A stretch of 64,000 nt of DNA from an uncultured candidate division Zixibacteria bacterium (GCA_963713865.1 OY970208.1:1176520-1240519); one strand, 5' to 3'. Counted from the stretch's first letter, positions 22,851 to 57,631 are shown. Notes: generated by a model not told the origin, from the sequence alone. Translations and numbers: made by a program.

Positions 22851-24030
22851 TTAAGCTTTTTTTCCTGACGGATCCATTTCTGACAAAACCCAGATTAGTT
22901 TTTCTATATCCTCAAGTGAATTGTAGAAATGAGGAGATACTCGTATTGAGTTCTCCCTGAAGGAGGTCAGTATTTTTTTCTGTGAAAGAGCTCGGTGCAG
23001 TTTTGGACAATTTTTACCAGAAAAAGAAAGTATACCTGATCGGTACAGGGGCTCAAGTGAGCTTTTGATCTGGTAAGGGGTATTTTTTAGATAATCTATT
23101 AGAAGGTCTAAAAGTTTTATGACCTGATTCTCGATAGCTTTAGTTCCAATTTCGGATATAAGCTCTAAAGAGGAACACATCGTCCATAGATTTGAAAAAG
23201 GGTAAGTCCCTATCTCAAACCTTCGACTGGAGGAGAAGCGGGGAAGGTCATATTTCAAAAGATCAGAGAAATTCAATTTCCAGTCAACACTCATCCAGCC
23301 GAAAAAAGCAGGATCGATTTTCATCTTAGCATTATCTGAAAGATAGAAAAAGCCTGTGCCCAGAGAGGAGAGCAGCCACTTCTGACCTCCACAGGCTAAG
23401 AAATCTATTTTACATTTTTTAACATCTAAATCCAGAACAGCCTACTCCCTGGATTCCATCTACAACAAAGAAAATATTTTTTTCCTCACAGATTTTTCCA
23501 ATAGTCTCCAAGTTATTTTTAAAACCATTGAAAAACTGAACATAGGTTATCGATAAGACTTTGCACTTTGAATCGATAGCTTTAAGGAGATCATCTATGC
23601 AAAAAAAACCGTTCTGGCTTTTAATAAATTTTATCTTCACGCCCTTCTTTTTCAGATTCAGCCAAGGATAAACATTTGCCGGAAACTCCACATCTGAAAG
23701 CAAAACCTTATCCCCATATTTAAAGTCCAGTCCATTTGCCACGATATTTAAACCATAAGAAGTGTTGGGCACCAATCCAATTTCTTTCGGTTTTGCGTTT
23801 ACCATTTTAGCCAGATATATTCTGATCTGGTCCATCATCTCAAAAGTCAACTTATCCATATCCACAACTTTTTTAAGGGTCAAAGCATCATAATATTCCA
23901 TTGTTTTTTTCAAAGCTCTTAAAGGAATGGGACCAAATGAGGCGTGATTAAGAAAATTAACTTTTTGGGTGAAGGGGAATTCCCTTCTGTATCTTGCTAA
24001 CTCTTTTGATTTGGTCTTTCTTAGAGCCAT
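22851..24030 (-). pseudogene. Class V aminotransferase (cysteine desulfurase / epimerase-like), interrupted by a frameshift near 23420-23440
   Basis: N-part (23419-24030) ends ...VDGIQGVG; an alternative frame continues VLDLDVKKCKIDFLACGGQKWLLSSLGTGFFY (PLP-Lys region) into the C-part ORF (22851-23324, IRVSPHFYN). Confidence 0.6.
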
Positions 24031-25008
24031 TTATTCTCCTTATACCATTTTATAGTTTCTAAAGCACCCTTTTCTAAATCATACTCCGGCGAAAATCCTA
24101 ATTCATTTTTTGCTTTTGAAATGTCGCAGAGCCAGTACCTCTGGCTTAGCTCATTTGCTTTCTGAAGATTTACCAGAGCAGATTCCCCTTTCAGGTGAGA
24201 GACCATTTCGGAGAAAGAGGCAAATGTGAACAAAAAGAATTTAGGGATTCTTAATTTAAAAGCTCTTATACCTAAGGATTTCTGGATGATCTTTCCAGCT
24301 TCTGTCCAGGAATAAACCTTTTCATCTGCTATAAAGTAGATCTGTCCGGAACTCTTTTGGTTTTCTGCGGTTAAAATTATCCCCCGGGTTAAATCTTTAA
24401 CATATATCAGGGAAATATAACTTTCTTTGAATCCAAAGAGAGGAATTATCCTTTTGTTCACCGTCTGGAAAAAAAATAAAATATCTTTATCTCTTGGACC
24501 ATAAACCGCAGGTGGTCGAACTATAGTAACCGGAAACTTCTCCTTAAAACTCAATACCTCTTTTTCTCCCTGAAGCTTACTTCTGCCATAATCGGTGATC
24601 GGCTCGCATTTTGCATCTTCATTTAAAGGGTAAAAATCTTTGCAGGGACCAACTGCGGCTTGACTGCTGACATAAACAAACTTCTTAATATGAGAATTGA
24701 TCTCCAGAACAGGTTTGAATCAGGTTTTTAGTTCCCTGGGCATTTGCTTTAAAATAATCCTCTTTATTTTTCGCTCGGGTTAAACCAGCCAGATGGAAAA
24801 CGAAATCTACCCCTTCTAAAGCTTTTCTTAAGGACTCAACCTCTGTTATATCTCCGTATCTATATTCAGTTTCCAGTCCTGAAAGAAAACTTAAGTTGCT
24901 CGTTTTCCTGACCAGGCAGAAAACCTCATAACGCTTGTTTAACAGAGCTTCAACTAAATGGCTCCCCACAAATCCATTTGCACCGGTAACTAAGGCTTTA
25001 GGGCTCAA
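24021..25008 (-). pseudogene. NAD-dependent epimerase/dehydratase-family (extended SDR) protein, interrupted by a frameshift near 24670-24700
   Basis: N-part VTGANGFVGSHLV Rossmann motif; shifted frame continues KKFVYVSSQAAVGPCKDFYPLNEDAK...FPVTIVRPPAVYGPRD. Confidence 0.6.
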
Positions 25009-28127: not shown

Positions 28128-29156
28128 ATGAAAATGACTAAGACGAAAATAATCTGTACCTTGGGACCCTCGAGCGGAAATGTCAAGGTGCTGAAAAAGA
28201 TGATGTTAGCCGGGATGGAGGTAGCAAGGCTTAATTTTTCTCATGGGAACTCTGCGGAACATCAAAACCGAATAAATCTAATAAAAGGTTTGAATAGTAA
28301 ATATAAACGCAATATAAAGATATTGCAGGACTTAGAAGGCTACCGGATAAGAATCGGCAGGTTCAAGGATAAAAAAGAAATTGAATTAAAAAAAAGACAG
28401 ATTGTTCTGTTAACTAATAAAGATCAAGCAGGAGATAAAGAGATTATACCATTCGATTACCAGGGTGAATTAAGCGATATCAAAATTGATAGTTTCATCT
28501 ATATAGACGATGGATATATCGCTCTAAAAGTAAAATCCAGGTCCAGGAATTATATCCAAGCAGAGGTAGTTATTCCGGGGGTCTTAAAGGAAAACAAGGG
28601 GGTTAATATTCCAGGAGCCAATTTGAGATTTAAAGATTTAACCGAAAAAGATAGAACGGATTTAAGATTTGGTATAAAAAATAAAGTGGATTTTATTGCC
28701 CAGTCGTTTGTAAGAAACAAACAGGATATTAAAAACATCAGAGATTTCATCCGGGGCAACGATTTTAACTGCCGGATTATTGCCAAGATCGAAAACCAGG
28801 ACGGGATCAGGAATATCGACAAGATATTGGAAGTGTCTGACGGTATCATGGTCGCGCGGGGAGATATGGGAGTCTCTTTGCCCATATATGAGGTTCCAAT
28901 ATGGCAGAAGATTATAATAGAAAAATGTAACCTTGAAAATAAATTTGTCATCACCGCTACCCAGATGCTGGAAAGTATGACCGAACATATAAGGCCAACG
29001 CGGGCAGAGGTAAGCGATGTGGCTAATGCGATAATGGATGGATCTGATTATTTGATGCTTTCGGCTGAGACGGCAGTTGGAAAACTTCCGGTTGAGGCAG
29101 TGAAGATGATGCACCAGATTATCAAATATACTGAAAAGTTCCTGAAGAAGGATTGA
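28128..29156 (+). CDS. Pyruvate kinase, short form lacking the C-terminal regulatory domain
   Basis: [48 protein letters not shown]; ends after the TIM-barrel domain at 342 aa. Confidence 0.8.
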
Positions 29157-32947: not shown

Positions 32948-33245
32948 CTTTTTCGCCTCCTTTGCGCTTTTTTGGTTTTCTTTACCTTACTACTTCTTTC
33001 AAAAATGAGCTTTAAAACATCAATACAAAATAGATTTCTTACCACTAAAAATTTAGTCTATTTTAAAATATTGTCAAGTCTTTTTTTCAAAAATCTAACC
33101 AGAGAATCTTTTTATCTTACAATAAGTTATACGAACGAAGGGATTGATTTTGGAGCCAATTTCAGGATTGGTATTTCCAGGGGGAACAACTTAGATTTAA
33201 ATTGCAGTGAAAGACTAATTTTAAAAGGATAGTTGATTAGATAAA

Positions 33246-33695
33246 CTACATCCCAGTTACTCTCAAGTTATATATTTTCCACTTTCCATCTTTGAAGTAA
33301 AGACCCATGTTAGTATAATTCTTAATCCCGGTTATTTTGCTGACATAGGTAACTTCAACTGCGGCTGAATCCCTTTTAACTTTTGATTTCCCTATTACTA
33401 CCAAACTGTTTTTCCAGCTCATCCGGGTAGATCCATCTCCGGTTAAATCTCTCAAAATTTCCTGTCTGATGTTAGGATAAAGTTCCTCCTTCTCTTTTAC
33501 CGAAAAACCTTTCAGATTTTCACCTGCAATGTACTCCAAATCCAGATATTCCTTTAAAGCGGTGGTATCAGATTGATCCACTGCGGTCATAAGTTTTTTT
33601 ACCTCTTCCCTGGGATCAGGTTTATTAGAGCAGGAAGTCAAGGAGATTATAAAAAGTAAAAGGGATAAACCGATCATTTGAAAAAGCCTTTTCAT
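33246..33695 (-). CDS. Lipoprotein, unknown function
   Basis: Signal peptide with lipobox LTSCS. Confidence 0.45.
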   Translation of the reverse strand: MKRLFQMIGLSLLLFIISLTSCSNKPDPREEVKKLMTAVDQSDTTALKEYLDLEYIAGENLKGFSVKEKEELYPNIRQEILRDLTGDGSTRMSWKNSLVVIGKSKVKRDSAAVEVTYVSKITGIKNYTNMGLYFKDGKWKIYNLRVTGM

Positions 33696-34160
33696 CTTTT
33701 CCTCACTTTCTTTTTGGCTGCCAATTTTTTAGGCTTAAACTTTTTAATTGAATCAAACAACTTGTTTTCTTCAGAAGAAAATATCACTCAAACTTAAAGG
33801 TCTGTCAATACCTATTTATAGAATATTTTTGTTTAAAAGGTATCAGGGGCAGGCACAGGGGCCTGCCCCTACCTCTTTCTGTCATTCTGAAGGAATCCCA
33901 CCAAAAGCTGGCGACTGAAGAATCTACTTCAAAGCAAAATTCAATAGATTCTTCGATTGACAAGGCGTGATCAGAATAACAGTAGAAGTAAGGTTATAGT
34001 TAAACGTTCCTACAAAACATCTTCAAATCATAAGGGTTAATATAGGGTTTGCTCCTGCATAATTCTGCAATATTAAAGGTTAATTCTGGTTGACAACTTC
34101 AGGATTTGTTACTTACTTTAGCAAAAGGCTTTTTGAAAGAAGGCGGAGGAGATAAAACGA

Positions 34161-34817
34161 ATGGAAAAAGAACTTAAAGTTTTTATGCAAAGATGTTACA
34201 ATTCGGTCCTGGAGGGGAATAAAGAGGAGGTTATAAAGTTATCCAGAGAAGCTATTAAATTAAAATACGACCCCTATCTTGTAGTTGAGAAAGGTCTGGT
34301 CGAAGGCATTAAGAAGTTAGGAAAAGAATGGGAGCAGGGGAGTTGTTTTCTACCTGAACTGGTCTTAGGAGCAGAGGCGGTAAAGGCTGGTATCTCAATT
34401 CTACAAAAACAGATTTTAAAAGTAAAGGCTGAAAAGAAAAGATTGCCCCGGCTGATAATCGGCACCATCGAAGGGGATATACATGATATCGGAAAGATGT
34501 TGGTTGCCACTATGCTCTCAGCCAACGGGTTTGAGGTGATCGATTTAGGCGTGGATGTCAAAGCTGAGGTTTTTGTCAAATCTGCAAAAAGGTACGAGCC
34601 GAAATTCCTCTGTATTTCGTCTTTACTTACTACTACTATGCAGAATGAGATTCAGGTCATGGAGGGATTAAAAAAAGCTAATCTAAGAAAAAAGATCAAA
34701 GTTATGGTGGGTGGGGCACCAGCCAGCCAGGGCTGGGCAAAAGAGATCGGAGCAGATTTCTACGGGGAGAATGCTATTTCAGCAGTAAAAATTGCTCGAA
34801 AAGAGATGAGCGAATGA
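34161..34817 (+). CDS. Cobalamin-binding corrinoid protein (B12-binding cap plus Rossmann domain)
   Basis: GDIHDIGK (DxHxxG B12 motif), helical cap N-terminus. Confidence 0.8.
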   Translation: MEKELKVFMQRCYNSVLEGNKEEVIKLSREAIKLKYDPYLVVEKGLVEGIKKLGKEWEQGSCFLPELVLGAEAVKAGISILQKQILKVKAEKKRLPRLIIGTIEGDIHDIGKMLVATMLSANGFEVIDLGVDVKAEVFVKSAKRYEPKFLCISSLLTTTMQNEIQVMEGLKKANLRKKIKVMVGGAPASQGWAKEIGADFYGENAISAVKIARKEMSE

Positions 34818-35725
34818 AAGGAACGCAAGGTAAAAAATCTATATTAGAATTGGGCAGGGAAAAGGTGGTTTTATTGGATGGGGCAATGGGAACGATGCTT
34901 TTCTCTGCGGGTCTGCCCTACAATAAACCGCCTGAACTGTGGAACCTTTCACATCCAGAAATAATTTTAAAGATTCACCAGAGATATATCCGGGCAGGTG
35001 TAGATATAATCCAGACCAATACTTTCGGAGCAAGCAGCCTGAAGTTAAAAAAATCAGGAAATGAAAAGAAGGTGGGGAAAATCAATCTATCTGCAGTGAG
35101 GATTGCAAATGAAGCCTGTCCGGTTGACAAGTATGTTGCCGGGAATATCGGACCCAGCGGTGAATTTTTTGAGCCTTTAGGTAAGGCAAAATTTAGAGAG
35201 CTAAAAAAAGTTTTTTCCAGACAGGCTGAACTGCTTTTGGGAGGTGGAGTTGACCTTTTTTCTATTGAGACGATGTTTGATTTAAGAGAAGCCTTATCCG
35301 CAGTTGAAGGAGTTAGGGAAGTATCTTCACTTCCCCTTTTCATCTGTATGACCTTTGAAAAAAAAATCAAGGGGTATTTTACGCTGATGGGGGATGAGGT
35401 TTCATTCTCTTTGAAAAAGCTCGAAGAGGCAGGTGCGGATGTGGTTGGGGCTAACTGTACCCTGGGTAGTGCAGAGATGATAGGATTGATCCCGGTAATG
35501 AAGAAAAGCACAAATCTACCGCTAATAGTTCAGCCAAATGCTGGAAAACCGGTGATTCGCAAAGGGAAAACGGTTTATCTTCAAAAACCAGATTCTTTTG
35601 CTAAGGATATATTTAGGATGATAAAGTCAGGGGTTAATTTTGCAGGAGGGTGCTGTGGCACTACCCCGGAATTTATTAGAAAGATTAAGGAAGGTTTGGA
35701 AAACTGTGAAAGACGGAAGTGCTGA
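34814..35725 (+). CDS. Homocysteine S-methyltransferase-domain protein (MetH N-terminal domain-like, Zn-thiolate)
   Basis: VLLDGAMGTML, ANCTLG, GGCCGTTPEFI Zn-ligand cysteines. Confidence 0.8.
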   Translation: MKGTQGKKSILELGREKVVLLDGAMGTMLFSAGLPYNKPPELWNLSHPEIILKIHQRYIRAGVDIIQTNTFGASSLKLKKSGNEKKVGKINLSAVRIANEACPVDKYVAGNIGPSGEFFEPLGKAKFRELKKVFSRQAELLLGGGVDLFSIETMFDLREALSAVEGVREVSSLPLFICMTFEKKIKGYFTLMGDEVSFSLKKLEEAGADVVGANCTLGSAEMIGLIPVMKKSTNLPLIVQPNAGKPVIRKGKTVYLQKPDSFAKDIFRMIKSGVNFAGGCCGTTPEFIRKIKEGLENCERRKC

Positions 35726-35932
35726 GTAGTAAAGGGTGTAGAGACGCATTGCTATGCGTTTCTACGAAAGAATAATCGCGTAAGGGTGGGTGAAGAGCTG
35801 GTTGAGCGAAGCGAAATCCCGCTTTAGCGGGATCTCCACCCTTCACCCTTGTCAGGTCGGGGGACCTGACAAACACTGAGTATTTTTTAATGATTAAAGC
35901 TAAAGCTTTACACTCCAGTTTGAAGATAAAAT

Positions 35933-36571
35933 ATGTTTGAGATAATTGAGAATTTCAAGGTAACAGTTGATCATAAGGAAATATTAAGGCTTTTAGGGCA
36001 TACCCCAGAAGATAAAAAGATAAAAGATAGCTCAAGGAAATTGATTGTGGAGATGATAGAGCTTTCTTTTGAGCTGACTAAACCTAAAGGGATTTATACT
36101 GTCAAAGATATAAAAGAATTGCCAGAAGAATGCTCTTTTAACTCAGGTGAAAAAGTTGCATTCGGAATATCTACTATCAGTGAGAAGTTAGAGAAAAAGG
36201 TTAAGAGTTTAAGTTCTAAGGGTGAACAAACCAGAGCGGTTATTTTGGATGCCATTGGTTCTGTGGCGGCTGAATATACAGCAGAATATCTGAATCAGAT
36301 TATCATAGATAAAGCTGAAGAAGATAATCTATATCATAGCCCCAGGTTCAGTCCGGGATATGGAGGATGGAAGTTAGAAGGGCAGAGACTTATCTTCAAT
36401 TTATTACCAGCAGAAAAGATCAGAGTGAGTTTAAATCAATTTTATATGATGGTACCTAAAAAATCGGTCTCCTTTGCAGTTAATTTGAGCAGAAATCGTT
36501 TTAAAGGGAAAAACCTGTCACCCTGCGAAATCTGTGGATTAAAAGAGTGCCATTTTAAAAAAGAAAAATGA
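35933..36571 (+). CDS. Methionine synthase activation-domain-like protein (putative reactivation component)
   Basis: 212 aa; RFSPGYGGW and MVPKKSVSF segments resemble the MetH activation domain as I recall it; tentative. Confidence 0.4.
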   Translation: MFEIIENFKVTVDHKEILRLLGHTPEDKKIKDSSRKLIVEMIELSFELTKPKGIYTVKDIKELPEECSFNSGEKVAFGISTISEKLEKKVKSLSSKGEQTRAVILDAIGSVAAEYTAEYLNQIIIDKAEEDNLYHSPRFSPGYGGWKLEGQRLIFNLLPAEKIRVSLNQFYMMVPKKSVSFAVNLSRNRFKGKNLSPCEICGLKECHFKKEK

Positions 36572-36581
36572 AGGAGGGAAC

Positions 36582-38060
36582 TTGAGGATATTCAGGCGTC
36601 CTGAATTAGAACTCTTAGATAAGAAAAGGGTTGAGCATATTATAGATGAAGCTTTGGAGCTGCTTTTAAAGGTTGGAGTTTTTGTGGAGAACAAAGAAGG
36701 GCTTGCTCTTTTGGGTGATGCTGGAACAGGGATAGATAAGAAGAAGAAAAGAGCCTATCTTAAAAAAGAGTTGGTTGAAAGATGTCTTAAAACTTGTCCA
36801 AAGGTAATTGAGGTTTATGACCGTGAAGAGAGGTTAGCTCTAAATCTAAAAGAAGATAAAGTCCATTTCAATCCCGGCTCTGCGGCTCTTTGGATTTATG
36901 ACTTAAAAAAAGATGTGATCAGAGAACCAGTAACTTCTGATCTGATTAAATTTGCCCAGCTGGTGGATGGGTTGGATTACCTGAAAGCCCAGAGCACTGC
37001 TTTAATCCCTTCGGATGTGCCCAAGAAAATGGCAGATCGGTATCGGCTTTTCATTTCACTTTTATTTTCAGTTAAGCCAGTTATCACCGGGACATTTGAG
37101 AAAGATGCTTTTAAGATTATGAAAGATATGCTGGTTTGTATTAGAGGTGGCGAGGGTAATTTAAGAAAAAAGCCCTTAGCCATTTTCGACTGTTGTCCAT
37201 CGCCCCCTTTGAAATGGAGCGATTTAACCTGCCAGAACTTGATCGATTGTGCGAAAAGCGGGATCCCGGCTGAGCTGGTCTCTATGCCTTTAAGCGGGGC
37301 AACTGCACCGATTACCTTAGTTGGAAGCTTAGTTCAGCATACGGCGGAGAATCTAAGCGGGATCGTTATCCATCAACTTACTCGCAGAGGTTCGCCGATT
37401 ATCTACGGTGGCTCACCCTCCGGTTTTGATATGAGGACCGGGACAACTCCCATGGGGGCAATCGAGACTATGATGATAGATTCAGCTTTTAACCAGATCG
37501 GGAAGTATTTTGGACTCCCCACCCATGCCTATATGGGGCTTAGCGACTCCAAGACAATGGATTATCAAGCCGGTTTAGAATCAGGGATCGGTGCGATTTT
37601 AGCTGCCTTATCCGGGATAAATGTTGTTTCCGGACCAGGTATGCTCGATTTTGAAAGTTGCCAGAGTTTAGAGAAGCTGGTTATAGATAACGAGATCTGC
37701 GGGATGGCATATCGATTGATTGAGGGGATTAATTTTAAAGATAAAACTCCTTCTTTAGACCTGTTCAAGGAGGAGTTTTTAGAAAAAGGGTTTTTGACCT
37801 CTCCTTATACTCTTAAATGGTTTAAAAAGGAGTTTTTCTTTCCCAGCCAGGTGATAGACCGGTCAAATTTAGGTGAATGGATCAAGAAAGGTAAAAAGAG
37901 CGCGATCTGGAAAGCCAGGGAACTGGTTGAGAAAATAGTTTCTCTTAAAAGCTTTAACCAGGTTCCGGTAGAAAAAAAGAAAGAGCTTCAGAAGATTATC
38001 CTGATGGATGCGAAGAACTATGAATTTGATCAGGAGTTGAAGAAGAGGTTTAAGAATTGA
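36582..38060 (+). CDS. MttB-superfamily (trimethylamine / quaternary-amine) corrinoid methyltransferase
   Basis: 492 aa, size and N-terminal region consistent with MttB family; substrate unknown. Confidence 0.7.
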   Translation: MRIFRRPELELLDKKRVEHIIDEALELLLKVGVFVENKEGLALLGDAGTGIDKKKKRAYLKKELVERCLKTCPKVIEVYDREERLALNLKEDKVHFNPGSAALWIYDLKKDVIREPVTSDLIKFAQLVDGLDYLKAQSTALIPSDVPKKMADRYRLFISLLFSVKPVITGTFEKDAFKIMKDMLVCIRGGEGNLRKKPLAIFDCCPSPPLKWSDLTCQNLIDCAKSGIPAELVSMPLSGATAPITLVGSLVQHTAENLSGIVIHQLTRRGSPIIYGGSPSGFDMRTGTTPMGAIETMMIDSAFNQIGKYFGLPTHAYMGLSDSKTMDYQAGLESGIGAILAALSGINVVSGPGMLDFESCQSLEKLVIDNEICGMAYRLIEGINFKDKTPSLDLFKEEFLEKGFLTSPYTLKWFKKEFFFPSQVIDRSNLGEWIKKGKKSAIWKARELVEKIVSLKSFNQVPVEKKKELQKIILMDAKNYEFDQELKKRFKN

Positions 38061-38437
38061 TAATAAATGTCATTTTGAGCGAAGCGAAAAATCTAAGGCT
38101 AAAAGGAAGAAGACTCTTTGCCCATTTTTCCCAGAATGACAGAATGAAACAGAAGTATCCAACTTTGACGGACTGTACCTTTACAATTTCAGTATAATTC
38201 TTTACTATTTTACTAAGAAAATTCAAGTTTTCCCTGATTTTGCCGATAAAAACAATAGAACTTTCAAGATTTTTACTTGACAAAACCGGTTTTTTACGTA
38301 TATTGATATTGTAAGGGATTAGAAGGAAAGAGTTAGTTGATTTTAAAATACCTTAAAAGATTTTAATTGACCATGAGAGTTTTTAGTTTTGTAGTATCTT
38401 TCATGGTTTTTTTGTTTTAACGTCAGGTTAGTGAAAG

Positions 38438-38656
38438 GTGGTGAATAAGATTTTGGCAGAAGGGAAAGTGAAGTGGTTCAACGAGGCTAAGGGATTTGGA
38501 TTTATCGAGCCCAAGGAAGGGGGGAAGGATGTCTTTGTGCATTATTCCGCGATAAAGTCGGAGGGATATAAGTCCCTGAAAGAGGGAGACGAGGTTAGCT
38601 TCGATACTACCGAGGGTCCTAAAGGACCGCAGGCAATTAATGTAGTTAAATTATAA
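38438..38656 (+). CDS. Cold-shock protein (CspA family)
   Basis: [14 protein letters not shown]...[11 protein letters not shown] motifs; long 5-prime leader. Confidence 0.95.
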
Positions 38657-38712: not shown

Positions 38713-38771
38713 TTTATTTGTAGAGACGCATAGAATGCGTCTCTTTATTATTCCCCTCCTTTTCAAGGAGA

Positions 38772-38821
38772 GGGTCAGGGTGAGGTCATAGTACTAAAAA
38801 AGGAACAGACAAGATGTCTGT
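38772..38821 (+). repeat. Dispersed repeat copy: GGGTCAGGGTGAGGTCA ... ACAGACAAGATGTCTGT
   Basis: See 17592 and 17826. Confidence 0.75.
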
Positions 38822-38938: not shown

Positions 38939-40195
38939 CTAAAACAATCCCAACTGCTCGGTATCTTTTTTTACTTCTACTTTCTCTCTTTCTTCAAATA
39001 TTTTTATCTTACCATAGACTCCGTCGTGGCCCGGAATTATAGTCAAATTTCTCTCACTTACTCTTTTGATACCTTCAAGTATTTTAGGTGGTGTTTCTAA
39101 AGATAATTCCTCCAGCGAAAGGTCAAGAAGGATTTTAAACTCATTTCCGAAGTTCTGGATCATTTTTTTATACTCTTCTTCCACACCTTTGGTATCCGGT
39201 GCTTGACCCAGGGCTTCTGCAATTATTTCTTGTAGCGGAATCAAATTTTTGAAGGGTATAGAATTGGGTGGGATAAACCCTTCGGGTCTATCGGCTAAAT
39301 CCTCTACCCGGTGCATCACTCCAACTGTGATCCTTTTATGACAGACCGGACAGAGGTATTTATTTTTTTTGGTCTCTGCTGGCGAGAATAATACCCCGCA
39401 GTTTCTATGTCCATCAAAATGGTATTTCCCTTCTTCGGGGAAAAATTCGAGGGTATATAAAAATTTATTTTTATCCTTTGATTTTATTGTGTCTACTATC
39501 TCCCTATAATCTAACTCGCAGTCAAATAGATTCGCCTCTCTTCCGAGCTTGGATGGTGAATGAGCGTCTGAATTAGAGATTAATGTAATCTTATCTAACT
39601 TTGATAATCTCCAGTTCATCTGCGGATCTGAGGAAAGTCCGGTTTCGATTGAATAAATATATTTAGAATATTCACCAAAGCATTCTTCAATTGAATCGAA
39701 CCCGGAATTTGCTCCGAAGATGGAAAACCAGGGGGTCCAGGCATGAGCCGGAATGATCAAACATTCCTGGGATACTCCCAATATGATTTTTAATAAATCC
39801 TTAGCCGGGAAGGTGAAAACAGGCCTGCCATCTGAGGACAATTTACCTAAATTTTCCAGTTTTTTATTGATTTTTTCAACTATCTCAAAAGACGGGGCGA
39901 AAACCAGGGTATGGATTTTTCTCAATCTTCCATTTTGATGAAAGATGTTGTTCAACTCTGCAGTGAGGATGAATCTGACGGGATATTTTTTATTTTTCAA
40001 TTGAAAGAGCCCGTTCCCCAGAGGCTCTAACTTCTCTTTCAATTCAGAAAGATAGGACGGATGAGTGAAATCCCCGGTTCCTAAAAGGGATATTCCCTTT
40101 ATCTCTGCCCATTTGGACAGGGAGTCAACCTCCATCTCCTGAGAGGTTGCCCGGCTGTATTTGGAATGGATATGAAAATCTGCGATGAAACGCAT
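38939..40195 (-). CDS. PHP-domain protein, endonuclease Q-like (TIGR00375-type)
   Basis: N-terminal FIADFHIHSKYS PHP motif; C-terminal Zn-finger-like CPVCHKR...GHRNC. Confidence 0.5.
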   Translation of the reverse strand: MRFIADFHIHSKYSRATSQEMEVDSLSKWAEIKGISLLGTGDFTHPSYLSELKEKLEPLGNGLFQLKNKKYPVRFILTAELNNIFHQNGRLRKIHTLVFAPSFEIVEKINKKLENLGKLSSDGRPVFTFPAKDLLKIILGVSQECLIIPAHAWTPWFSIFGANSGFDSIEECFGEYSKYIYSIETGLSSDPQMNWRLSKLDKITLISNSDAHSPSKLGREANLFDCELDYREIVDTIKSKDKNKFLYTLEFFPEEGKYHFDGHRNCGVLFSPAETKKNKYLCPVCHKRITVGVMHRVEDLADRPEGFIPPNSIPFKNLIPLQEIIAEALGQAPDTKGVEEEYKKMIQNFGNEFKILLDLSLEELSLETPPKILEGIKRVSERNLTIIPGHDGVYGKIKIFEEREKVEVKKDTEQLGLF

Positions 40196-49376: not shown

Positions 49377-50054
49377 TCATCTGCCTTTTTCTTCTTCGAT
49401 ATGATGTCTGATATCTTTACCCTGCACCAAATAGATAACATCTTCAGCTATATTAGTAGCATGGTCTCCTATTCTCTCTAAATGTCTGGAGACTAAGATT
49501 AATTCCAGAGCCCGGGGTATAGTGGATTGGTCACTGAGCATAAAGGTCAGAAGCTCACGAAAAATCTGGTCTTTTAATCCATCGACTTGATCATCCCGGG
49601 TCAAAATCGAACGAGCTAAGTCTACATCCCTTTTAATGAAAGCATCTAAACTGTCTTTCACCATCTTTTGAGTCAGTTCCGCCATTCGGGGTATGTCGAT
49701 CAAGGGCTTGAGCTGAGGCTGTTTAATCAGAACTTCAGTCCGCTGAATAATATTTACCGCTAAATCCCCAATCCTTTCCAGCTCGCTGTTGATCTTCATA
49801 GCCGAGGTGATAAACCTCAAGTCCGTTGCCATCGGCTGTTTCAGAGCCAAGAGCTTAAGGCAGAGATCGTCGATCTCTATTTGAAGATAGTTAACCTTTT
49901 TCTCGTCCTGATTAACCACTTCGAATAGAGACTCATCTCTTTCCGATAGAGATTTAACCGCCTTGTAGATCATCATTTCAGCCAAGCTGGCCATAGATAG
50001 CAATTTTTCTTTTAGGAGATTTAACTCCTCATCGAAATGTTTGTGAATCGTCAT
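49377..50054 (-). CDS. phoU: Phosphate signalling regulator PhoU
   Basis: Two PhoU repeats (ERIGDLAVNI, ERIGDHATNIAED). Confidence 0.9.
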   Translation of the reverse strand: MTIHKHFDEELNLLKEKLLSMASLAEMMIYKAVKSLSERDESLFEVVNQDEKKVNYLQIEIDDLCLKLLALKQPMATDLRFITSAMKINSELERIGDLAVNIIQRTEVLIKQPQLKPLIDIPRMAELTQKMVKDSLDAFIKRDVDLARSILTRDDQVDGLKDQIFRELLTFMLSDQSTIPRALELILVSRHLERIGDHATNIAEDVIYLVQGKDIRHHIEEEKGR

Positions 50055-50075
50055 TTTCTTCTTCCTTTCAAATTA

Positions 50076-50918
50076 TCATCCAAATCGCCCGGTTACATAA
50101 TCCTCGGTCTTTTTATCTCTGGGATTGGTGAAAATCTTAGAGGTCTGGTCAAACTCCACCAGCTCTCCCAGGAAGAAGAAACCGGTATAATCCGAAATCC
50201 GGGCAGCCTGCTGCATGTTATGGGTCACAATTACAATAGTATAGTTTTTCTTCAAATCTAAAATTAACTCCTCTATCTTTCCAGTAGAAATCGGATCTAA
50301 AGCCGAGGCTGGTTCATCCATTAAGAGAACCTCCGGTTCTACAGCTAAAGCCCGGGCAATGCAGACCCTCTGTTGCTGGCCTCCGGAAAGCTTCAAAGCA
50401 GACTGGTCTAATTTATCTTTGACCTCGTCCCATAAAGCTGCATCTTTCAAAGTCCTCTCCACAGTTTCCTCCAGGATGTTCTGATTACCAATCCCCTGAA
50501 TCCTCAGACCATAAGATACGTTCTCAAAGATTGACTTGGGAAAAGGGTTCGATTTCTGGAAAACCATCCCTACTTTTCTTCTCAATTCCGAGAGCTCGAT
50601 GCCCCTGGAGTAGATATCTACTCCATCCAAAAAAACCTTACCTGAACTGTTAGCTCCCGGAATTAAATCGTTCATCCGGTTCAAGCATCTCAAGAAGGTC
50701 GATTTCCCACAGCCAGAGGGACCAATAAAGGCGGTGATCTGATTCTCCTGAATACCGATGGAGATGTCTTTCAAAGCCTGAGTTTTGCCATAGTAGAAAT
50801 TCAGTTTCTCAACCAAGATTTTGGGAGTAAAGCTCTCTATTTTCTTTCCTGATATCTCAGGAGTTTTAGGTTCGATTTTAGCTTCTGTTTCTTCTCTCAT
50901 TATGCTCTCTTCGTTCAT
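50076..50918 (-). CDS. pstB: Phosphate ABC transporter ATP-binding protein PstB
   Basis: [39 protein letters not shown]. Confidence 0.95.
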
Positions 50919-50921
50919 ATT

Positions 50922-51827
50922 TCAAACGTTATGTCTCATCTGTCTTCTTACCTTAGACCTGATAAATATAGCGATGAAATTCAAAAGTAAAGTTAAAATT
51001 AAAAGTACCAGCACAGTTCCGTAAAGGATCGGCTTGGTAGCTTCCACATCAGGAGATTGGGTCGCCATCACGTAGACATGATAACCCAGTTCCATAAACT
51101 GGTCAGTGGGCTTATGCGGCAGGTAGGGTAAAAAGTAAGCCGCACCGGTGAACATTATAGGAGCAACTTCTCCAGCCCCTCGACTGATGGAAAGGATAGC
51201 ACCGGTCAAAACCCCGGGAAGTGCCTGAGGAAGGACTACCCTGCGAATAGTCTGCCACTTGGTTGCACCTAAGGCAAAAGATGCCTCCCGAATTTCCGAG
51301 GGAACTGCTCTCAGGGCTTCCTCTGAAGCAACTACAACTACCGGAAGGTTCAAAAGGGCTAAGGTTAAAGCCGCCCACATAAGACAGGGTTGTCCCCAAA
51401 CCACCTCCAAACCAAAAAACTTATCTATTCCTGCCCCGACAAATTGTATAAAAAATCCTAACCCAAATAACCCGAAGACAATCGAAGGCACACCAGCTAA
51501 GTTGTTCACGGCAAAACGAATTGTTTTAGTCAGAGCAGATTCAGGCTTTGCGTATTCGTGTAAATAGATTGCAGTCATAACCCCAACCGGGAGTACAGCG
51601 ATTATCATTAAAATAACTAAAGCCACAGTCCCGAAAATTGCCGGGAAAATCCCGCCTGCGGTCATCCCTTCACGGGGAGCTTTGGTAATGAAATCCCAGC
51701 TTATGATCTTATGTCCCTGCAGAACTATATTCCCGATAATCACAAACAGGATGGCAAAGATAATCAGGGTCGCAAGTAAGGTTAGACCGGTAAAGAAAGA
51801 ACCGAATAAGTTAATCCTGAGTTTCAT
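50922..51827 (-). CDS. pstA: Phosphate ABC transporter permease PstA
   Basis: Multi-TM permease, position in operon. Confidence 0.85.
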   Translation of the reverse strand: MKLRINLFGSFFTGLTLLATLIIFAILFVIIGNIVLQGHKIISWDFITKAPREGMTAGGIFPAIFGTVALVILMIIAVLPVGVMTAIYLHEYAKPESALTKTIRFAVNNLAGVPSIVFGLFGLGFFIQFVGAGIDKFFGLEVVWGQPCLMWAALTLALLNLPVVVVASEEALRAVPSEIREASFALGATKWQTIRRVVLPQALPGVLTGAILSISRGAGEVAPIMFTGAAYFLPYLPHKPTDQFMELGYHVYVMATQSPDVEATKPILYGTVLVLLILTLLLNFIAIFIRSKVRRQMRHNV

Positions 51828-52790
51828 TTAAATTTTTCCCGCTAATTTCCTTTGCAACCTTCCCACAACCAGCTGGGCTAAGGAATTGATAATCAAAGTG
51901 AAGACAAAGAGGGAGGCACCGATGAAAAATAAAACATTGTAATGTGCACTGCCGTGTACCACCTCTCCTAATTCTGCGGCGATGGTGGCAGACATCGTGC
52001 GAACCGAATCAAAAATATTAGCAGAGAGCAGGGAGGCATTTCCAGAAGCCATTAAAACTATCATTGTTTCACCTACTGCCCTTCCTAGTCCTAAGATAAT
52101 CCCTGCCAGAACACCAGGCATTGCCACTGAAAGAGAAACTCGAAAGGCAGTCTGCCAGCGATTGGCTCCTAATGCCAGAGAGGCTTCCTTTAAACTCCGG
52201 GGCACAGAGTTCAAAGCATCCTCAGCTATGGAATAGATAACCGGGATGATGGCAAAGCTTAATGCCATCCCGGCATTAAAGGCGTTTAAACGCATAGTTG
52301 AATGAAAGATACTGTGAAAAAACGAAGCCATAACCATCAGAGCGAAAAAACCCAAGACCACAGAAGGTATTCCAGCCAAAATCTCAACAATCGGCTTGAT
52401 AAATTCTTTTAATTTGAGAGGTGCAAATTCTGAAGTAAAAATAGCAGCTCCTACAGAAATAGGAATTGAAAAAAAGAGGGCTACCACCACGACTTTGAAG
52501 GTTCCTAATATGATAGCAATCAAACCATATCGAGGAAAATCCGAAATCGGTTGCCAGATTTTTGTGGAAAAGAAAAGCCTTAAACTGGCTTCTTTTTTGA
52601 CTTCAGGACTAACTAGGATTGGCAAAGCCTCCCGGAAAACAAAAACAAAGATCAGAATAACAGCTAAGATCGCCAAGAAAGAGGAAAAAAAGATTACCTT
52701 TTCAATAATGAATTCAGAAAGGCGGAATCTTTTCTTGGAAATGACAAATTCCGATTGGCGTTTCTTTTCTATGGTCTTCAAGTTTTCCAT
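51828..52790 (-). CDS. pstC: Phosphate ABC transporter permease PstC
   Basis: Multi-TM permease, position in operon. Confidence 0.85.
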   Translation of the reverse strand: MENLKTIEKKRQSEFVISKKRFRLSEFIIEKVIFFSSFLAILAVILIFVFVFREALPILVSPEVKKEASLRLFFSTKIWQPISDFPRYGLIAIILGTFKVVVVALFFSIPISVGAAIFTSEFAPLKLKEFIKPIVEILAGIPSVVLGFFALMVMASFFHSIFHSTMRLNAFNAGMALSFAIIPVIYSIAEDALNSVPRSLKEASLALGANRWQTAFRVSLSVAMPGVLAGIILGLGRAVGETMIVLMASGNASLLSANIFDSVRTMSATIAAELGEVVHGSAHYNVLFFIGASLFVFTLIINSLAQLVVGRLQRKLAGKI

Positions 52791-52978
52791 ATTTCGAAAA
52801 GTTAGTGATACTTCCTTCTAAGTCTATCCTCGCATGGTGATAGTATCTTGTTTCTGATTCCCTTCCTCGATGGGAGGGGATAAAGGGAAGAGTGAAGTCG
52901 CATCATATTTTACTTCTCTCTAACCTTCTTCCGCAAGCTGCTGCTACTGTTGTTATGTAAAGTTGCAGGAATCCTCCA

Positions 52979-53449
52979 TTAAGATGATATTGATCTGTCA
53001 AGGTACTGTGAGTAATCTGTCAACCTCTGGGTGTATCTTTCTCTTATTAAATTAGATGAAATAATAAAATCTGCTGTAGATCTGTTACAAGCTGTAGGAA
53101 TATTATAAAGAACAGAGATCCTCAGCAAAGCTTTTACATCAACATCATGCGGGTGTGGTTGCATGGAATTCCAAAAGAAGATCAGAATGTCAATATTTCC
53201 TTCTGCAACCATCGCTCCAAGTTGTTGATCGCCTCCAAATGGACCTGATTTTAGTTTAACTATACTATGGTTCAATGACTGCCCTTTTTCTAGTTTCTTG
53301 GATATTACTTCCTCAACTAAGCGACCAGTAGTCCCTGTACAGATCAACCTGTGATTTAAAAGTACTTTCCAGTTCCATTCTACCCATTCGACTAAGTCAC
53401 TTTTACAGTTGTCGTGTGCAACCAAAGCAACTCGCTTCGATATTTCCAT
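52979..53449 (-). CDS. mgsA: Methylglyoxal synthase
   Basis: ALVAHDNCKSDLVEW...TGTTG...SGPFGGDQQLGA...DILIFFW...QPHPHDVDVKALLR. Confidence 0.85.
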   Translation of the reverse strand: MEISKRVALVAHDNCKSDLVEWVEWNWKVLLNHRLICTGTTGRLVEEVISKKLEKGQSLNHSIVKLKSGPFGGDQQLGAMVAEGNIDILIFFWNSMQPHPHDVDVKALLRISVLYNIPTACNRSTADFIISSNLIRERYTQRLTDYSQYLDRSISS

Positions 53450-53607
53450 GACCTCTCCTTATATCTATTCTGTTTCATAAGACTTGATTGATACGAGCCT
53501 ATGTTGTGTCATAGTCAAGCATATTATTCTGTGCCCAGCAATTTTGCATAACATCTGCACCCTTACGCAGTAAGGCTGTTTGTTAGCGGTAGACATTCAC
53601 AGCAAAC

Positions 53608-54558
53608 CTATATTACACCTGATTGTTTAAAATAACTTACCGTTTCTTCAATTCCCTTTTCATAAGGGGTGGGCTTATGGTTGAAATGTTTTTCAAATTT
53701 CGACGAATCAAACACATAATCATATTTATTTTGATACAACATTTCATAAGCTTCCCGTGTCCGCTTATCAAATACGCCTGCCAGCTTTACCATCCACTTC
53801 TTTAGAACAGTGAAGTCGGGATTTACTCCCAGCTTTTCAGCCACATTTCTTATGAATTCCTCACCGGTTAGAGGAGGGCTTGCGGTTGGTAGATGCCATA
53901 CCTGATTATTCGCACTCTCTGCCTTAGCTAAGAGGTACAAAGACTTTCCACAGTCGCCTGTATACGTGTAAGAGTGTTTGGCTTTGACATTTACTAACCA
54001 TTGTGCTTTTCTGCCTTTTGCTAGTCTTTCAATCACGAGCATAAATGGAAGGCTTGTTTTATCTGCATAAGGTCCATAGAAATCAGCAGCCCTTGCGATG
54101 ATAGCAGTGATATTGTTGCTCCTTATTTCTGAGAGAAGGTAGTCGGCTATTTGAGCCCTCACTTCGCCTTTTTTACTGCAAGGATTAATGGGGGAATCTT
54201 CCTTCATAATACCTTTCACTTTCCCATACATATACACGTTGTCAAAAAAGATCAGCCGGGCATTTTTCGATTTGCAAGCCGCAACAGTATTTTGCATTAT
54301 TATGGGCCATTGTTCTTGCCAGATTGATGTATCGTAAGGAAGTCCAACAAGAAGATAAACAACAGATGATTCTTCAAGGGCATGATTTGTTTCCTGGAAA
54401 TTAGTTAAGTCAGCTTTTGACGATTCTGTCCGCTGAACACTGTGTCCACTGCGGGATACTAGTTTTACACTTTCATTATTTGAAAGCAATTCTTTTGTCA
54501 GGATATTACCAATAGCACCACCCGCTCCAAGAATAATGTGTTTTGTAATTGTTTTCAT
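53608..54558 (-). CDS. NAD(P)-binding oxidoreductase (atypical SDR / NmrA-epimerase-like)
   Basis: N-terminal ILGAGGAIGN Rossmann motif; 316 aa. Confidence 0.6.
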   Translation of the reverse strand: MKTITKHIILGAGGAIGNILTKELLSNNESVKLVSRSGHSVQRTESSKADLTNFQETNHALEESSVVYLLVGLPYDTSIWQEQWPIIMQNTVAACKSKNARLIFFDNVYMYGKVKGIMKEDSPINPCSKKGEVRAQIADYLLSEIRSNNITAIIARAADFYGPYADKTSLPFMLVIERLAKGRKAQWLVNVKAKHSYTYTGDCGKSLYLLAKAESANNQVWHLPTASPPLTGEEFIRNVAEKLGVNPDFTVLKKWMVKLAGVFDKRTREAYEMLYQNKYDYVFDSSKFEKHFNHKPTPYEKGIEETVSYFKQSGVI

Positions 54559-54654
54559 TTGATCTTGCTCTTAGACGGATGTTATCATCCGACTTATCTC
54601 CTGCTGGATGAGGGCATCCAGCAGGAGCTTGAAAAAACTACTAACTTCCTACGA

Positions 54655-55489
54655 CTACTTGACTGGGAAATACCCAACCTTACTTACAATCTGCTGTCCC
54701 TGTTCAGACAGGGCGAAATCGACTAATTTCTTTATTTCACCAGTAGGTTTATTGCGAACATACCAGTATAGATAGCGGGAAATAGGATATTTTCCATTTT
54801 TTATATTCTCCAGAGTCGGCTCATAGCCAAGTGTTTGAGCATCCTTCTTAACTTTGCAATATTTCACTCCTTTGGCATAAGCGGCTCCTCCATAACCGAT
54901 TCCATATTCGTCCTTTGCCACTGCATTCACAATCGCCGCAGTTCCCGGAAGGGTCTCGGGTCTGGGATGCAAAATCTGCACCCGTTAAGACATTGTCCTT
55001 AAAATAAGCATAAGTGCCGGAGCTATTATCCCTGCCATAGAGGACTATTTTGGTATCATCTCCGCCTAAGTCCTTCCAGTTGGTAATCTTTCCGGTGTAA
55101 ATTCCTTTAAGTTGATCCAGGGTGAGTTCAGAGATCTTGTTTTCTTCGTTCAGATAGATAGAGAGTCCATCTCTTGCTACTGCGATTTCAACTCCTTTAG
55201 TGTTAAACCGCTCTTTCAATTTGTCAACTTCAGAGCTTTTAATAGGTCTTGAGGCTTCGCAGATGTCAGTCGAGCCATTGATTAAAGCGGCAATCCCTAC
55301 TCCAGAACCTCCACCAGTTACCTGAATAACTACTCCCGGATTCTGATTCATATAGATTTCTGCCCATCTTTGACCCAAAATGAGCAAAGTGTCAGAGCCT
55401 TTTATGGTAATAGTCTTAGCGGCAAAAACTGATAACATAACTGTAAATGATAAAGATAGAATTCCTATAACGGCTATTAGCTTTTTCAT
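54655..55489 (-). pseudogene. pstS: Phosphate-binding protein PstS, frameshift near 54960-55000
   Basis: N-part IQVTGGGSGVGIAALINGSTDI; C-part (GTG start artefact) LPGTAAIVNAVAKDEYGIGYGGAAYA in a different frame. Confidence 0.8.
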
Positions 55490-55511
55490 TTTATTCTCCT
55501 TTCTTTAATAT

Positions 55512-56779
55512 TTAAAACATAAACTGAAATTGCAAGGTAAATCTGTTGTCTTTTCTGTCGCCATCATATTTGGAGAAAATAGAGTTGTTTTTAAGTTGAT
55601 GAGGTATATCATATGCTGCCGTTATCCTTACATAAGAATCCCAGAAATAATGCAGGGCTAAAGACAAGGTTCCAGTGGCGTCGTTCTTTGCGTTCTCATC
55701 TGTATTGGGGTCCCAGTAATCATATCTGGCGGCAGCTCCAAATTTAGTGGTTAAATTCTGGGATAACCAGAGATACCAGCCCATTTCGTCGGCTAAAGAA
55801 TCCTTTGCATTTTTATTATAGTCCTGAGCCAGGTAAAGCTCTCCCCTGATTCCGGTTCCGCCGATTGGCAAGAAATCAAGATAGACCTGGGCATCAGCAC
55901 CATACCTGATCTTGTCTTTTTCCACTGCTGGGACTGCAGCTTTTGGAGCAGTGGTTTTAAACTCGCCCGGGTCTATTACTCCATTTCCATTCACATCATA
56001 CCAGCTGGTAACACCAGAAACAGCCGCGCTTCCAGGAAAATAGGTTTTACCCCAGTAACCGGAGAATCCTAAATCGACCATTCCTAATTTCGCCTTTGCC
56101 CGAGCAATTACATCTTTTGCCTTAGTAGGATCAAACCAGGTGAAGTTTTTGTCCTCTATCCCGTAACCTTGGAAAAGACCTAAGTTGAACTGGAGATATT
56201 TCGGAAGAGCCCAGGTAAGATTTGTTCCTCGGTCTCGTTCCCCTTTGAAAAGGTTATTCTCTGCCAGACTTCTTTCCGGGAAATCTCTTTTGGACGAAGA
56301 ATATTCGATCTCGTACCCGAAAGGCCAGTTGAATTGTCCAAAAGTTAGCGCGAGATTATGTTTTCCGATACTCTTGTAAAGCTCAACATAAGCTTCTTTC
56401 AATGAAACGGTATTCTTTGAAGCATCAAAATAGATAATATACTTGCTGGAAGAACCGGGCTGGACCGTGAACTTTATCCTTCCTCTCCTGATATAGAAGT
56501 TATTGGCATTTAGGTTTTTAGTGGCATCATAACCACCTGCAACTCCATTCTGGGAACTGTCATTATACTCATACCGCATCTGGATGTAGCCGGATATTTT
56601 CACCCATTTCAGGATAGCAACATCGCTGTTCAAAGTTGCCATGTTCTCCGAAATCCCATCCAGACGGTCTTTCGTTTCCTGAAGCGCAGCCTTAATGCTG
56701 TCTTCTGGGTCTGCGCCCAGGAATGATTTAGACTTATAGCTACTAATAAAAGCAAGATCAGCAAAATTTTTGTTTTCAT
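55512..56779 (-). pseudogene. Phosphate-selective porin (OprO/OprP-like), frameshift within signal-peptide region near 56700-56770
   Basis: ATG at 56779 encodes signal peptide MKTKILLILLLLVAISLNHSWAQ in one frame; mature porin ORF (55512-56642) in another; position upstream of pstS. Confidence 0.6.
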
Positions 56780-56979
56780 GTTTTCTCCTTTTTTGTTCTG
56801 GTTTCTTAAGTCCTAACTCGTCAGGCTTTCAAGCTTAACTTCTCATACCACCTCCTCGAAATATTTTCCAATTAAACTTTTTAACTTTACTTTCATATTT
56901 CCTCCTTTAATATTTTCTAATAATTGCAAAATTCATCGTCTTTCAAACTACAAATTAAACGTTCACCATATTACGCCTG

Positions 56980-57007
56980 TATTAACTCAGTGTTAATTCT
57001 GGGTTAA
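56980..57007 (-). promoter_or_regulatory. Pho-box-like element: three direct repeats TTAACC / TTAACA / TTAATA at 11-bp spacing upstream of the porin-pst operon
   Basis: Hexamers at 57007-57002, 56996-56991, 56985-56980 on minus strand; about 200 bp upstream of porin start. Confidence 0.4.
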
Positions 57008-57400
57008 CAAACATTCACCGGATAATCTGCCTGGGGAAGATGATAGAATACACTTAGAGGGCTAAATTTGCCTCATATCTGTCTTAAAATGTGGTAATAG
57101 TTTAGACTAAAGAGATGACTGGCTGGCAGAACTTTACTTCGTCCCAAGGATGTTTTTTTCAGATTTGTCACCTGAACCAGCATGAGCTATTGATACTAAG
57201 GGTAAGACTAAAAGAAGAATCAAAAAGACTATTAGGTACTTCCTGAAGGTCATTTCTAAACTCCTCTGATATAAAAGTTTTTTACCTTAAAACACTCACC
57301 TGCAGAACAAAATCCTTAAAATTGAGTTAGACAGATTTTACATCATTATTAATGATAAAAACCTGTTGTACTTCTTCCTCTCCGCAACCTCGAGCTGCCG

Positions 57401-57616
57401 TTAATTCTCGTTCATAAAATCTGCCTCAGGTACTTCAAATTCCTCGAATTCCTCAAGTTCCTCTAACTCGATTACTGGAGGTTTAATAAGGGTATATTCA
57501 CCCTCTATGATTTTTTCCACCACCTTAAGGAACTTCTCCGTGCTTAACCCCTGTAACTTGTAGGTTATCCAGCATGTTCTTGGGGGTGGCTTGCTTTTCT
57601 CCTTCGATTCAAGCAT
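57401..57616 (-). CDS. Small acidic protein, unknown function
   Basis: 71 aa ORF with EELEEFEEFE tail; coding status uncertain. Confidence 0.3.
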   Translation of the reverse strand: MLESKEKSKPPPRTCWITYKLQGLSTEKFLKVVEKIIEGEYTLIKPPVIELEELEEFEEFEVPEADFMNEN

Positions 57617-57631
57617 AAGTTCTACCCTGGG

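Follow-up and report, generated by a model that had tools for sequence, protein, structure and literature searches.

Four genes on the plus strand, all in the same orientation, fill positions 34161-38060 of a 64-kb window (the whole stretch of DNA analysed, 64,000 nucleotides from an uncultured candidate division Zixibacteria bacterium, GCA_963713865.1 OY970208.1:1176520-1240519). ORF (open reading frame) calling and Pfam searches indicate that they probably encode a three-component corrinoid methyl-transfer system together with its repair factor, ending in methionine. The products are a corrinoid protein, a stand-alone homocysteine S-methyltransferase, a small protein like the activation domain of the methionine synthase MetH, and a non-pyrrolysine methyltransferase of the MttB superfamily (Table 1). 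The domain calls, the absence of a linked pterin-binding gene and the conserved neighbourhood together make a flow of methyl groups from an MttB donor through the corrinoid protein to homocysteine the best reading of this sequence. An earlier sequence-only reading of the same DNA had placed four co-oriented genes here, and the ORFs lie exactly where it put them; its four domain assignments were all matched in Pfam (B12-binding, S-methyl_trans, Met_synt_B12 and MTTB). The idea that methionine is made from a methylated amine via a corrinoid carrier stands as the best reading, but the glycine betaine offered as an example did not survive comparison of the substrate pocket.

In the mechanism that we propose, the MttB homologue would, by analogy with its family, move a methyl group from a small methylated compound to the Co(I) state of the MttC-like corrinoid protein. 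The homocysteine domain would then bind homocysteine as a zinc thiolate and take the methyl group from methyl-Co(III), giving methionine and Co(I); this step is suggested by the family, the conserved zinc ligands and genetic precedent in Phaeobacter and Ruegeria. Co(II) would be remethylated by the activation protein, which resembles Thermotoga maritima TM0269, using S-adenosylmethionine (SAM) and an electron from reduced ferredoxin or flavodoxin. The net effect would be remethylation of homocysteine without folate, and the system would be functionally a B12-dependent counterpart of betaine-homocysteine methyltransferase (BHMT). All three steps are predicted from family membership, motifs and gene linkage. 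The expected catalytic motifs are present, namely the His and Asp of DxHxxG, the three zinc-ligand cysteines with a conserved Glu, and RxxxGY. Tight packing of the genes also counts in favour of this mechanism: the corrinoid and homocysteine genes share an ATGA stop/start overlap, the activation gene is separated from the mttB homologue by a gap of 10 nt, and the TTG start of the latter lies 5 nt past a Shine-Dalgarno sequence, AAGGAGG.

Components of the four-gene cluster

The corrinoid protein matches B12-binding_2 (8.9e-17) and B12-binding (1.2e-25). Against the PDB, its match to MttC (7xcn_M) reaches 2.6e-51 and 177 bits, compared with 1.8e-24 and 90 bits for the B12 domain of Escherichia coli MetH (1bmt). 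It scores 213.2 bits with the NCBIfam profile TIGR02370, 'methyltransferase cognate corrinoid protein', marginally under the cutoff of 215.3. Asp106 and His108 align with Asp105 and His107, cobalt-ligand residues of MttC, in which a cobalt-ligand triad has been described (PMC9842639). Judged by these matches, the protein is of the methylamine-methyltransferase type and not of the MetH type.

The homocysteine protein covers model positions 1-281 of 283 in S-methyl_trans (PF02574, 1.2e-66). It is matched over residues 7-297 by the homocysteine module of T. maritima MetH (1q7m) at 2e-61, compared with 8.4e-12 for a solved stand-alone homocysteine S-methyltransferase (5dml). We take the zinc ligands of T. 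maritima MetH to be C207, C272 and C273; all three are kept as cysteines in the window protein. The DGAxGT, NTFGA and IET motifs are also retained, and the conserved Glu of the FET/IET motif corresponds to T. maritima residue 146. All of the 120 best homologues have a single domain, and most are about 295-305 aa long. The second gene product is thus placed in PF02574 with proteins of the MetH type, and specificity for homocysteine is predicted.

The activation protein is the weakest of the four domain calls. Its match to Met_synt_B12 (PF02965) has an E-value of 1.7e-6 and 28.2 bits against a cutoff of 25, and it is partial, spanning model positions 125-243 of 273; phmmer finds TM0269 (PDB 1j6r) with E = 2.6e-8. 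The RxxxGY motif presumably corresponds to the SAM-binding motif of E. coli MetH. The protein falls within the family, SAM binding is predicted, and it would be expected to perform the SAM-dependent reductive remethylation of Co(II). Outside the Pfam match, its C-terminus carries a CxxCx4C motif that is invariant in 36 of the 52 homologues (L006-L085). A homocysteine gene is present in the locus for 31 of these 36, compared with 3 of the 16 homologues that lack the motif. Most homologues with CxxCx4C have a fourth cysteine at the column of Ser80 in the window protein, which is without it. The motif may be a metal site or a point of electron entry.

The mttB homologue has no internal stop and no in-frame amber codon. 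MTTB (PF06253, 4.1e-77) covers residues 7-473, and this full-length match, together with matches to solved TIM-barrel structures, places the protein in the MttB superfamily. The closest is Methanosarcina barkeri MttB (7xcl, 1e-55), slightly better than Desulfitobacterium hafniense MtgB (9yce, 9.4e-53). By family it would be the substrate:corrinoid methyltransferase (MT1). The domain matches make the cluster a mosaic, in which an MttB/MttC-type donor pair is combined with a MetH-type homocysteine module and a MetH-type repair module.

Table 1 Features of the cluster and its flanks, in window coordinates
Feature	Position	Strand	Remarks
Upstream intergenic region	33696..34160		465 nt, divergent minus-strand gene on one side, corrinoid gene on the other
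Corrinoid (B12-binding) protein, MttC/MtbC/MtgC type	34161..34817	+	218 aa, Pfam
GDIHDIG (DxHxxG motif)	34473..34493	+	aa 105-111; Asp106-x-His108
Stand-alone homocysteine S-methyltransferase domain, MetH type	34814..35725	+	303 aa, Pfam
GANC215TLG, predicted first zinc-ligand Cys	35447..35467	+	aligns with Cys207 of T. maritima MetH
GGC280C281GT, predicted second and third zinc-ligand Cys	35645..35662	+	align with Cys272 and Cys273 of T. maritima MetH
Internal spacer	35726..35932	+	207 nt, three stacked GC-rich hairpins, between the two gene pairs
Small MetH-activation-domain protein, TM0269-like	35933..36571	+	212 aa, Pfam
RFSPGYG (RxxxGY motif)	36344..36364	+	aligns with RISPGYG of 1j6r; nearly invariant in 52 homologues
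C198-x2-C201-x4-C206	36524..36550	+	C-terminus of activation protein, outside Pfam match
Non-pyrrolysine MttB-superfamily methyltransferase	36582..38060	+	492 aa, Pfam MTTB
Ser100	36879..36881	+	column of MtgB Y97, MttB G110; Ser in 81/81 clade members
His315	37524..37526	+	column of MtgB R312, MttB Y329; His in 72, Gln in 9
Leu320	37539..37541	+	column of Pyl334 (pyrrolysine) in M. barkeri MttB, Leu in MtgB; Leu in 79/81
Ser350	37629..37631	+	column of MtgB H348, MttB Y364; Ser in 80/81
Glu358	37653..37655	+	column of MtgB F356, MttB G372; Glu in 81/81

The substrate pocket of the MttB homologue

A pattern scan restricted to one genome per species recovered 80 loci that carry this type of MttB homologue at 53-95% identity, 81 with the window. 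The clade therefore has at least 81 loci. In a neighbour-joining tree rooted on MtgB they form a tight group on a long branch, apart from both MttB and MtgB.

The structure of MtgB with betaine, together with mutagenesis, identified Y97 and F356 as cation-π contacts and R312 and H348 as the residues that bind the carboxylate (PMC13080624). R312 is conserved in all characterised members without pyrrolysine, and their substrates are acidic quaternary amines (PMC13080624). In the clade all four betaine-binding residues, R312 included, are replaced, Y97/R312/H348/F356 becoming S100/H315/S350/E358, which are invariant or nearly so in the 81 members. Identity with MtgB, and with it glycine betaine as the donor, was rejected on these grounds. 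The protein was also rejected as MttB proper, the trimethylamine enzyme: Leu320 stands where a UAG-encoded pyrrolysine would be, Ser100 replaces Gly110, Ser350 replaces Tyr364, and the score with the TIGR02369 equivalog profile is 384 bits, under its cutoff of 525. Met249 of MttB is retained as M235.

The pocket, as read from the alignment, is neither of the betaine type nor of the pyrrolysine-trimethylamine type. Loss of the Arg at the R312 column suggests that the donor is probably not an acidic quaternary amine. We regard a methylated amine as the probable donor, though neither glycine betaine nor trimethylamine used via pyrrolysine.

Conserved neighbourhood and competing explanations

The loci were searched with the four window proteins and all of their ORFs were clustered; the 47 loci whose flanks reach 3 kb or more on each side are referred to as full-flank loci. 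The best protein matches come from metagenome-assembled genomes (MAGs) labelled Zixibacteria. The order corrinoid, homocysteine, activation, mttB occurs in 27 of the 81 loci, and since the same four genes stand in the same order in several phyla their clustering is not due to chance. A homocysteine gene lies within 8 kb of mttB in 24 of the 47 full-flank loci, and 21 have all three partners. Loci with a linked homocysteine gene are scattered over the entire clade tree, basal branches included, and are labelled Zixibacteria, Krumholzibacteriota, Eisenbacteria, Gemmatimonadota, KSB1, some Aminicenantes and other uncultured lineages. Stand-alone homologues of the homocysteine protein are also encoded in other arrangements, such as homocysteine-activation-mttB (L089) or the homocysteine gene by itself (L087, L088).

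Neighbouring genes were scanned with Pfam on two scales. Within the window, the scan took in the four cluster genes and 40 other ORFs, so that all non-overlapped ORFs of 200 aa or more were covered; among these, as beside the cluster, there was no Pterin_bind (PF00809), MetF, MetH or MetE. Across the 81 loci, representatives of every neighbour family with a median length of at least 180 aa and present in at least 5 loci, and several rarer ones, included no pterin-binding or UroD-type methylcobamide methyltransferase. Classical MetH, its split forms included, was rejected with PF00809 missing from the cluster, from the scanned window ORFs and from the recurrent neighbour families. The conserved gene order and the lack of an adjoining pterin-binding methyltransferase, two points that the sequence-only reading had named as checks, both come out in its favour, as do the two domain assignments that could have refuted it. 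Among the scanned recurrent neighbours, the homocysteine gene is the sole candidate for the methyl-acceptor step (MT2).

Several observations weigh against a dedicated route to methionine. The mttB homologue stands alone in about a quarter of the full-flank loci (none of the three partners in 12 of 47), Aminicenantes loci mostly have corrinoid, activation and mttB genes without an adjacent homocysteine gene, and one locus (L086, 6204-8740) holds a corrinoid-homocysteine-activation triad with no mttB nearby, its homocysteine protein being 57% identical to that of the window. These arrangements imply that the modules are separable and that the corrinoid protein may have additional partners. MAGs with this cluster also encode a normal MetH, according to Williams et al. 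(PMC9324843), and a pterin module may lie elsewhere in the genome, our view of which is the 64-kb window. The recurrent neighbours of the 81 loci indicate no specific donor. The count of phyla is approximate because the NCBI taxon labels of many MAGs are unreliable.

The most serious alternative, which we nevertheless consider unlikely, builds on this separability. Here the genes would belong to a shared-corrinoid network, a split MetH with its pterin module elsewhere, in which the MttB homologue mainly feeds catabolism through tetrahydrofolate (THF) and direct flow from donor to homocysteine is incidental. Such logic has been demonstrated for MtgB/C/D/E of Ruegeria pomeroyi, where mtgC and mtgD mutants are methionine auxotrophs and betaine-negative (PMC12478193); the L086 triad and the Aminicenantes loci would fit it, and 64 kb is the whole visible part of the genome. 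However, the scans of window ORFs and of neighbour families gave no pterin-binding gene, and genes for THF-linked one-carbon oxidation (MetF, FolD and the like) are not linked either. Marine mtgE is, moreover, usually not close to mtgBCD, whereas the homocysteine gene here is translationally coupled to the corrinoid gene within an mttB operon.

It is rather improbable that the MttB clade instead binds 5-methyl-THF or another methylated pterin, which would make the cluster a folate-dependent split MetH with a non-homologous folate module. Besides the MttB gene the cluster is exactly the MetH module set, the clade has neither pyrrolysine nor the aromatic pair and Arg of the quaternary-amine members, the MttB and pterin-binding barrels are structurally related (PMC9842639), and a transporter for an external methylamine is not consistently linked. 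Use of a pterin is not known for any MttB-family member, however, and the full MetH in MAGs with the cluster argues for a different donor (PMC9324843). An APC-family amino-acid permease directly after mttB in one Aminicenantes locus (L058, 9455-10825) also hints at an imported substrate. A homocysteine enzyme that works alone with SAM or S-methylmethionine (MmuM/YagD or YitJ-like), its place beside the corrinoid gene being incidental, is highly improbable: its best NCBIfam profile is indeed the N-terminal half of the YitJ-type bifunctional homocysteine methyltransferase/methylenetetrahydrofolate reductase (287.7 bits), and PF02574 also includes cobalamin-independent enzymes, but the protein is far closer to the cobalamin-dependent T. 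maritima MetH than to 5dml, the ATGA overlap points to translational coupling, and its position between the corrinoid and activation genes is kept in 27 loci across phyla.

Some loci differ in the genes that accompany the cluster. An ATP-dependent corrinoid activase family of the RACo/RamA type is found in four loci (L054, L026, L069 and L079, some of them Aminicenantes); in L054 (5543-7318) it lies directly before the corrinoid gene, and this locus has no MetH-type activation gene. The Aminicenantes loci have as recurrent neighbours a BNR/sortilin protein, RACo, the APC permease, galactokinase and SatD. The Krumholzibacteriota-type operon continues past mttB with an isochorismatase-family hydrolase and then a thioredoxin-reductase-like flavoprotein (L019, L021, L023, L029, L036, L040, L041, L043, L047, L067, L068, L070 and L076); where such loci are long enough, the next gene encodes a protein of about 313 aa with weak similarity to RlmN/Cfr radical-SAM enzymes. 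Electrons for reactivating the corrinoid could come from the flavoprotein. Krumholzibacteriota loci also encode NadA, an M49-like peptidase and others nearby.

Setting in the window and relation to known systems

The cluster forms an island on the plus strand: the genes immediately upstream, and those past a small downstream cold-shock gene, are on the minus strand, and a sigma-54 activator, a TPR protein and an M1 peptidase are among the products of the neighbouring genes. The promoter is presumably located in the upstream intergenic region, which contains a GC-rich palindrome at 33845-33870. The internal spacer has a minimum free energy of -72.9 kcal/mol (z = -5.3) and resembles a palindromic element of the REP (repetitive extragenic palindromic) type. 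It was rejected as a terminator: a pattern scan found none there, and stacked REP-like hairpins are not a canonical terminator. The spacer is kept in L007, the closest relative, with 89% nucleotide identity over the whole cluster in one alignment; distant relatives lack it, and their genes abut. Riboswitches and leaders upstream or in the spacer were also rejected, as Rfam searches of 33200-38500 at gathering and permissive thresholds revealed no SAM, cobalamin or T-box leader. The sole Rfam match of the region is a sub-threshold PYLIS_3 (25 bits compared with 38) at 37541-37638 inside the mttB coding region, which reflects coding homology only.

GC-rich palindromic repeat families occur between genes at 35726-35932, 33845-33870, 38060-38140, 38751-38795 and elsewhere, and a hairpin stack of this sort interrupts the operon, with the homocysteine gene before it and the activation gene after it. 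A 45-nt repeat family has six copies, at 4148, 13526, 17806, 27807, 38751 and 63500. Exact copies of the 13-mer GAGCGAAGCGAAA at 35804 and 38077 flank the activation-mttB pair, and a copy with one mismatch is at 42379; 0.05 matches would be expected by chance.

Elsewhere in the window, a 118-nt tandem direct repeat (two copies, 82% identity) occupies 57803-58038, between the phosphate-porin and histidine-kinase genes. It lies within a phosphate acquisition region (49377-60801) that encodes PhoU, an ABC ATPase, two permeases, a periplasmic binding protein and a phosphate-selective porin, followed by a histidine kinase with PAS/HAMP domains and a response regulator of the OmpR type. Two abutting, overlapping ORFs on the minus strand, of 203 aa (23419-24030) and 177 aa (24021-24554), may be the two parts of one class-V aminotransferase (cysteine desulfurase-like) gene, broken up by a frameshift or a sequencing error, or a pseudogene; the 203-aa ORF matches only the N-terminal half of Aminotran_5 (positions 9-181 of 371). 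The pyruvate kinase ORF at 28128-29156 (342 aa) matches the barrel domain only, with no C-terminal PK_C. A PHP-like protein of the window (38939-40195) was compared with the PHP gene that follows mttB in the KSB1 locus L089, and the two are not related.

The sequence-only reading had implied that such a system lacked precedent, which is not the case. A four-gene 'methionine synthase gene cluster' was described by Williams et al. in 2022 (Environ Microbiol) in Ca. Electryoneota and 'diverse bacteria' (PMC9324843), and related genetics followed in 2025 (PMC12478193) after earlier work in 2018 (PMC5764234). The cluster of Williams et al. likewise consists of a non-pyrrolysine MttB/MtgB homologue, a homocysteine S-methyltransferase, a corrinoid protein and an activation protein. 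Its MttB homologue falls in an uncharacterised clade that is distinct from both MttB and MtgB but closer to the former, and the same hypothesis was reached independently, corrinoid-dependent methionine synthesis from an unspecified methyl donor (PMC9324843). That work was purely bioinformatic, and the present copy differs in coming from a Zixibacteria-like genome. Their clade appears to be ours, matched by components and description and not by sequence. Because both cluster and hypothesis were described in 2022, the genes of this window are a Zixibacteria-like addition to a predicted kind. What is added here is the breadth and conservation of gene order, the mosaic origin, the pocket signature against betaine, the interchangeable repair module and the cysteine motif that tracks the homocysteine gene.

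Among systems studied by genetics, those of Phaeobacter inhibens and R. pomeroyi both make methionine only with a corrinoid protein of the methylamine type and a PF02574 protein that stands alone (PMC5764234; PMC12478193). Mausz et al. (2025) found that a shared corrinoid protein joins the MttB-family and homocysteine modules in Ruegeria, and that in roseobacters the pterin module is intertwined with them (PMC12478193). The Ruegeria MtgBCDE and three-part Phaeobacter MetH systems thus resemble this cluster in three components, with a donor enzyme of the MttB family, a corrinoid protein of the methylamine type and a PF02574 protein on its own. In those systems, however, the pterin-binding MtgD is essential and methyl groups pass via THF, whereas here no pterin module is linked. 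RamA and DUF1638 take the place of the MetH-type activation domain in reactivation there, MtgE resembles BHMT and its gene is usually unlinked to mtgBCD whereas the homocysteine gene here is within the operon, and the donor is glycine betaine, the binding residues for which are absent here.

MtgB/MtgC/MtgA of D. hafniense and MtcB, MtpB, MtyB and MthB of Eubacterium limosum resemble the cluster in having a non-pyrrolysine MT1 with Leu at the pyrrolysine position and a cognate corrinoid protein. Their acceptor enzyme is a THF methyltransferase, where we propose a homocysteine methyltransferase, and they use acidic quaternary amines through Arg R312 and the aromatic pair, in place of which the present clade has His, Ser, Ser and Glu at the binding positions (PMC13080624). 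The pyrrolysine-dependent MttB/MttC of M. barkeri (7xcl, 7xcn) are the closest solved structures for both proteins, with Met249 kept as Met235. M. barkeri MttB, in contrast, has pyrrolysine and Tyr364 where the homologue, with its score under the TIGR02369 cutoff, has Leu320 and Ser350, and its acceptor is coenzyme M (CoM) via MtbA.

The split MetH of T. maritima (TM0268 and TM0269; 1q7m, 1j6r) provides the closest solved relatives of the homocysteine module and the activation protein, but has a fused pterin-binding barrel and a MetH-type B12 domain where this cluster has an MttB-type donor and an MttC-type corrinoid protein. The core methionine synthases MesA-D (PMC7857596) also obtain methionine from a methyl-corrinoid protein with no folate-binding domain in the synthase; they are related to MetE and not to PF02574, and MttB, MtrH, PF02574, trimethylamine and methylamine all go unmentioned in that paper.

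Returning to the flow from an MttB donor through the corrinoid protein to homocysteine, we advance a wider proposal, tentatively and as a possibility to be taken seriously. The clade marked by S100/H315/L320/S350/E358 may be the dedicated donor module of a folate-independent, B12-dependent methionine synthase. Its donor would be new to the superfamily and without an R312-bound carboxylate, for example a methylamine that is neutral or cationic. Within the MttB family this would be the first system with homocysteine, instead of THF or CoM, as its physiological terminal acceptor, and it would be a principal way in which Zixibacteria, Krumholzibacteriota, Eisenbacteria and related uncultured phyla remethylate homocysteine. 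With four soluble proteins, the system is a small one. If the proposal is true, widespread sediment and soil bacteria would remethylate homocysteine without folate, drawing the methyl group from an environmental or intracellular compound via B12, and the B12 dependence of uncultured phyla would be extended. MttB-family chemistry would gain a new terminal acceptor, and a function would be available for many 'mttB' genes that are now read in metagenomes as trimethylamine or glycine-betaine catabolism.

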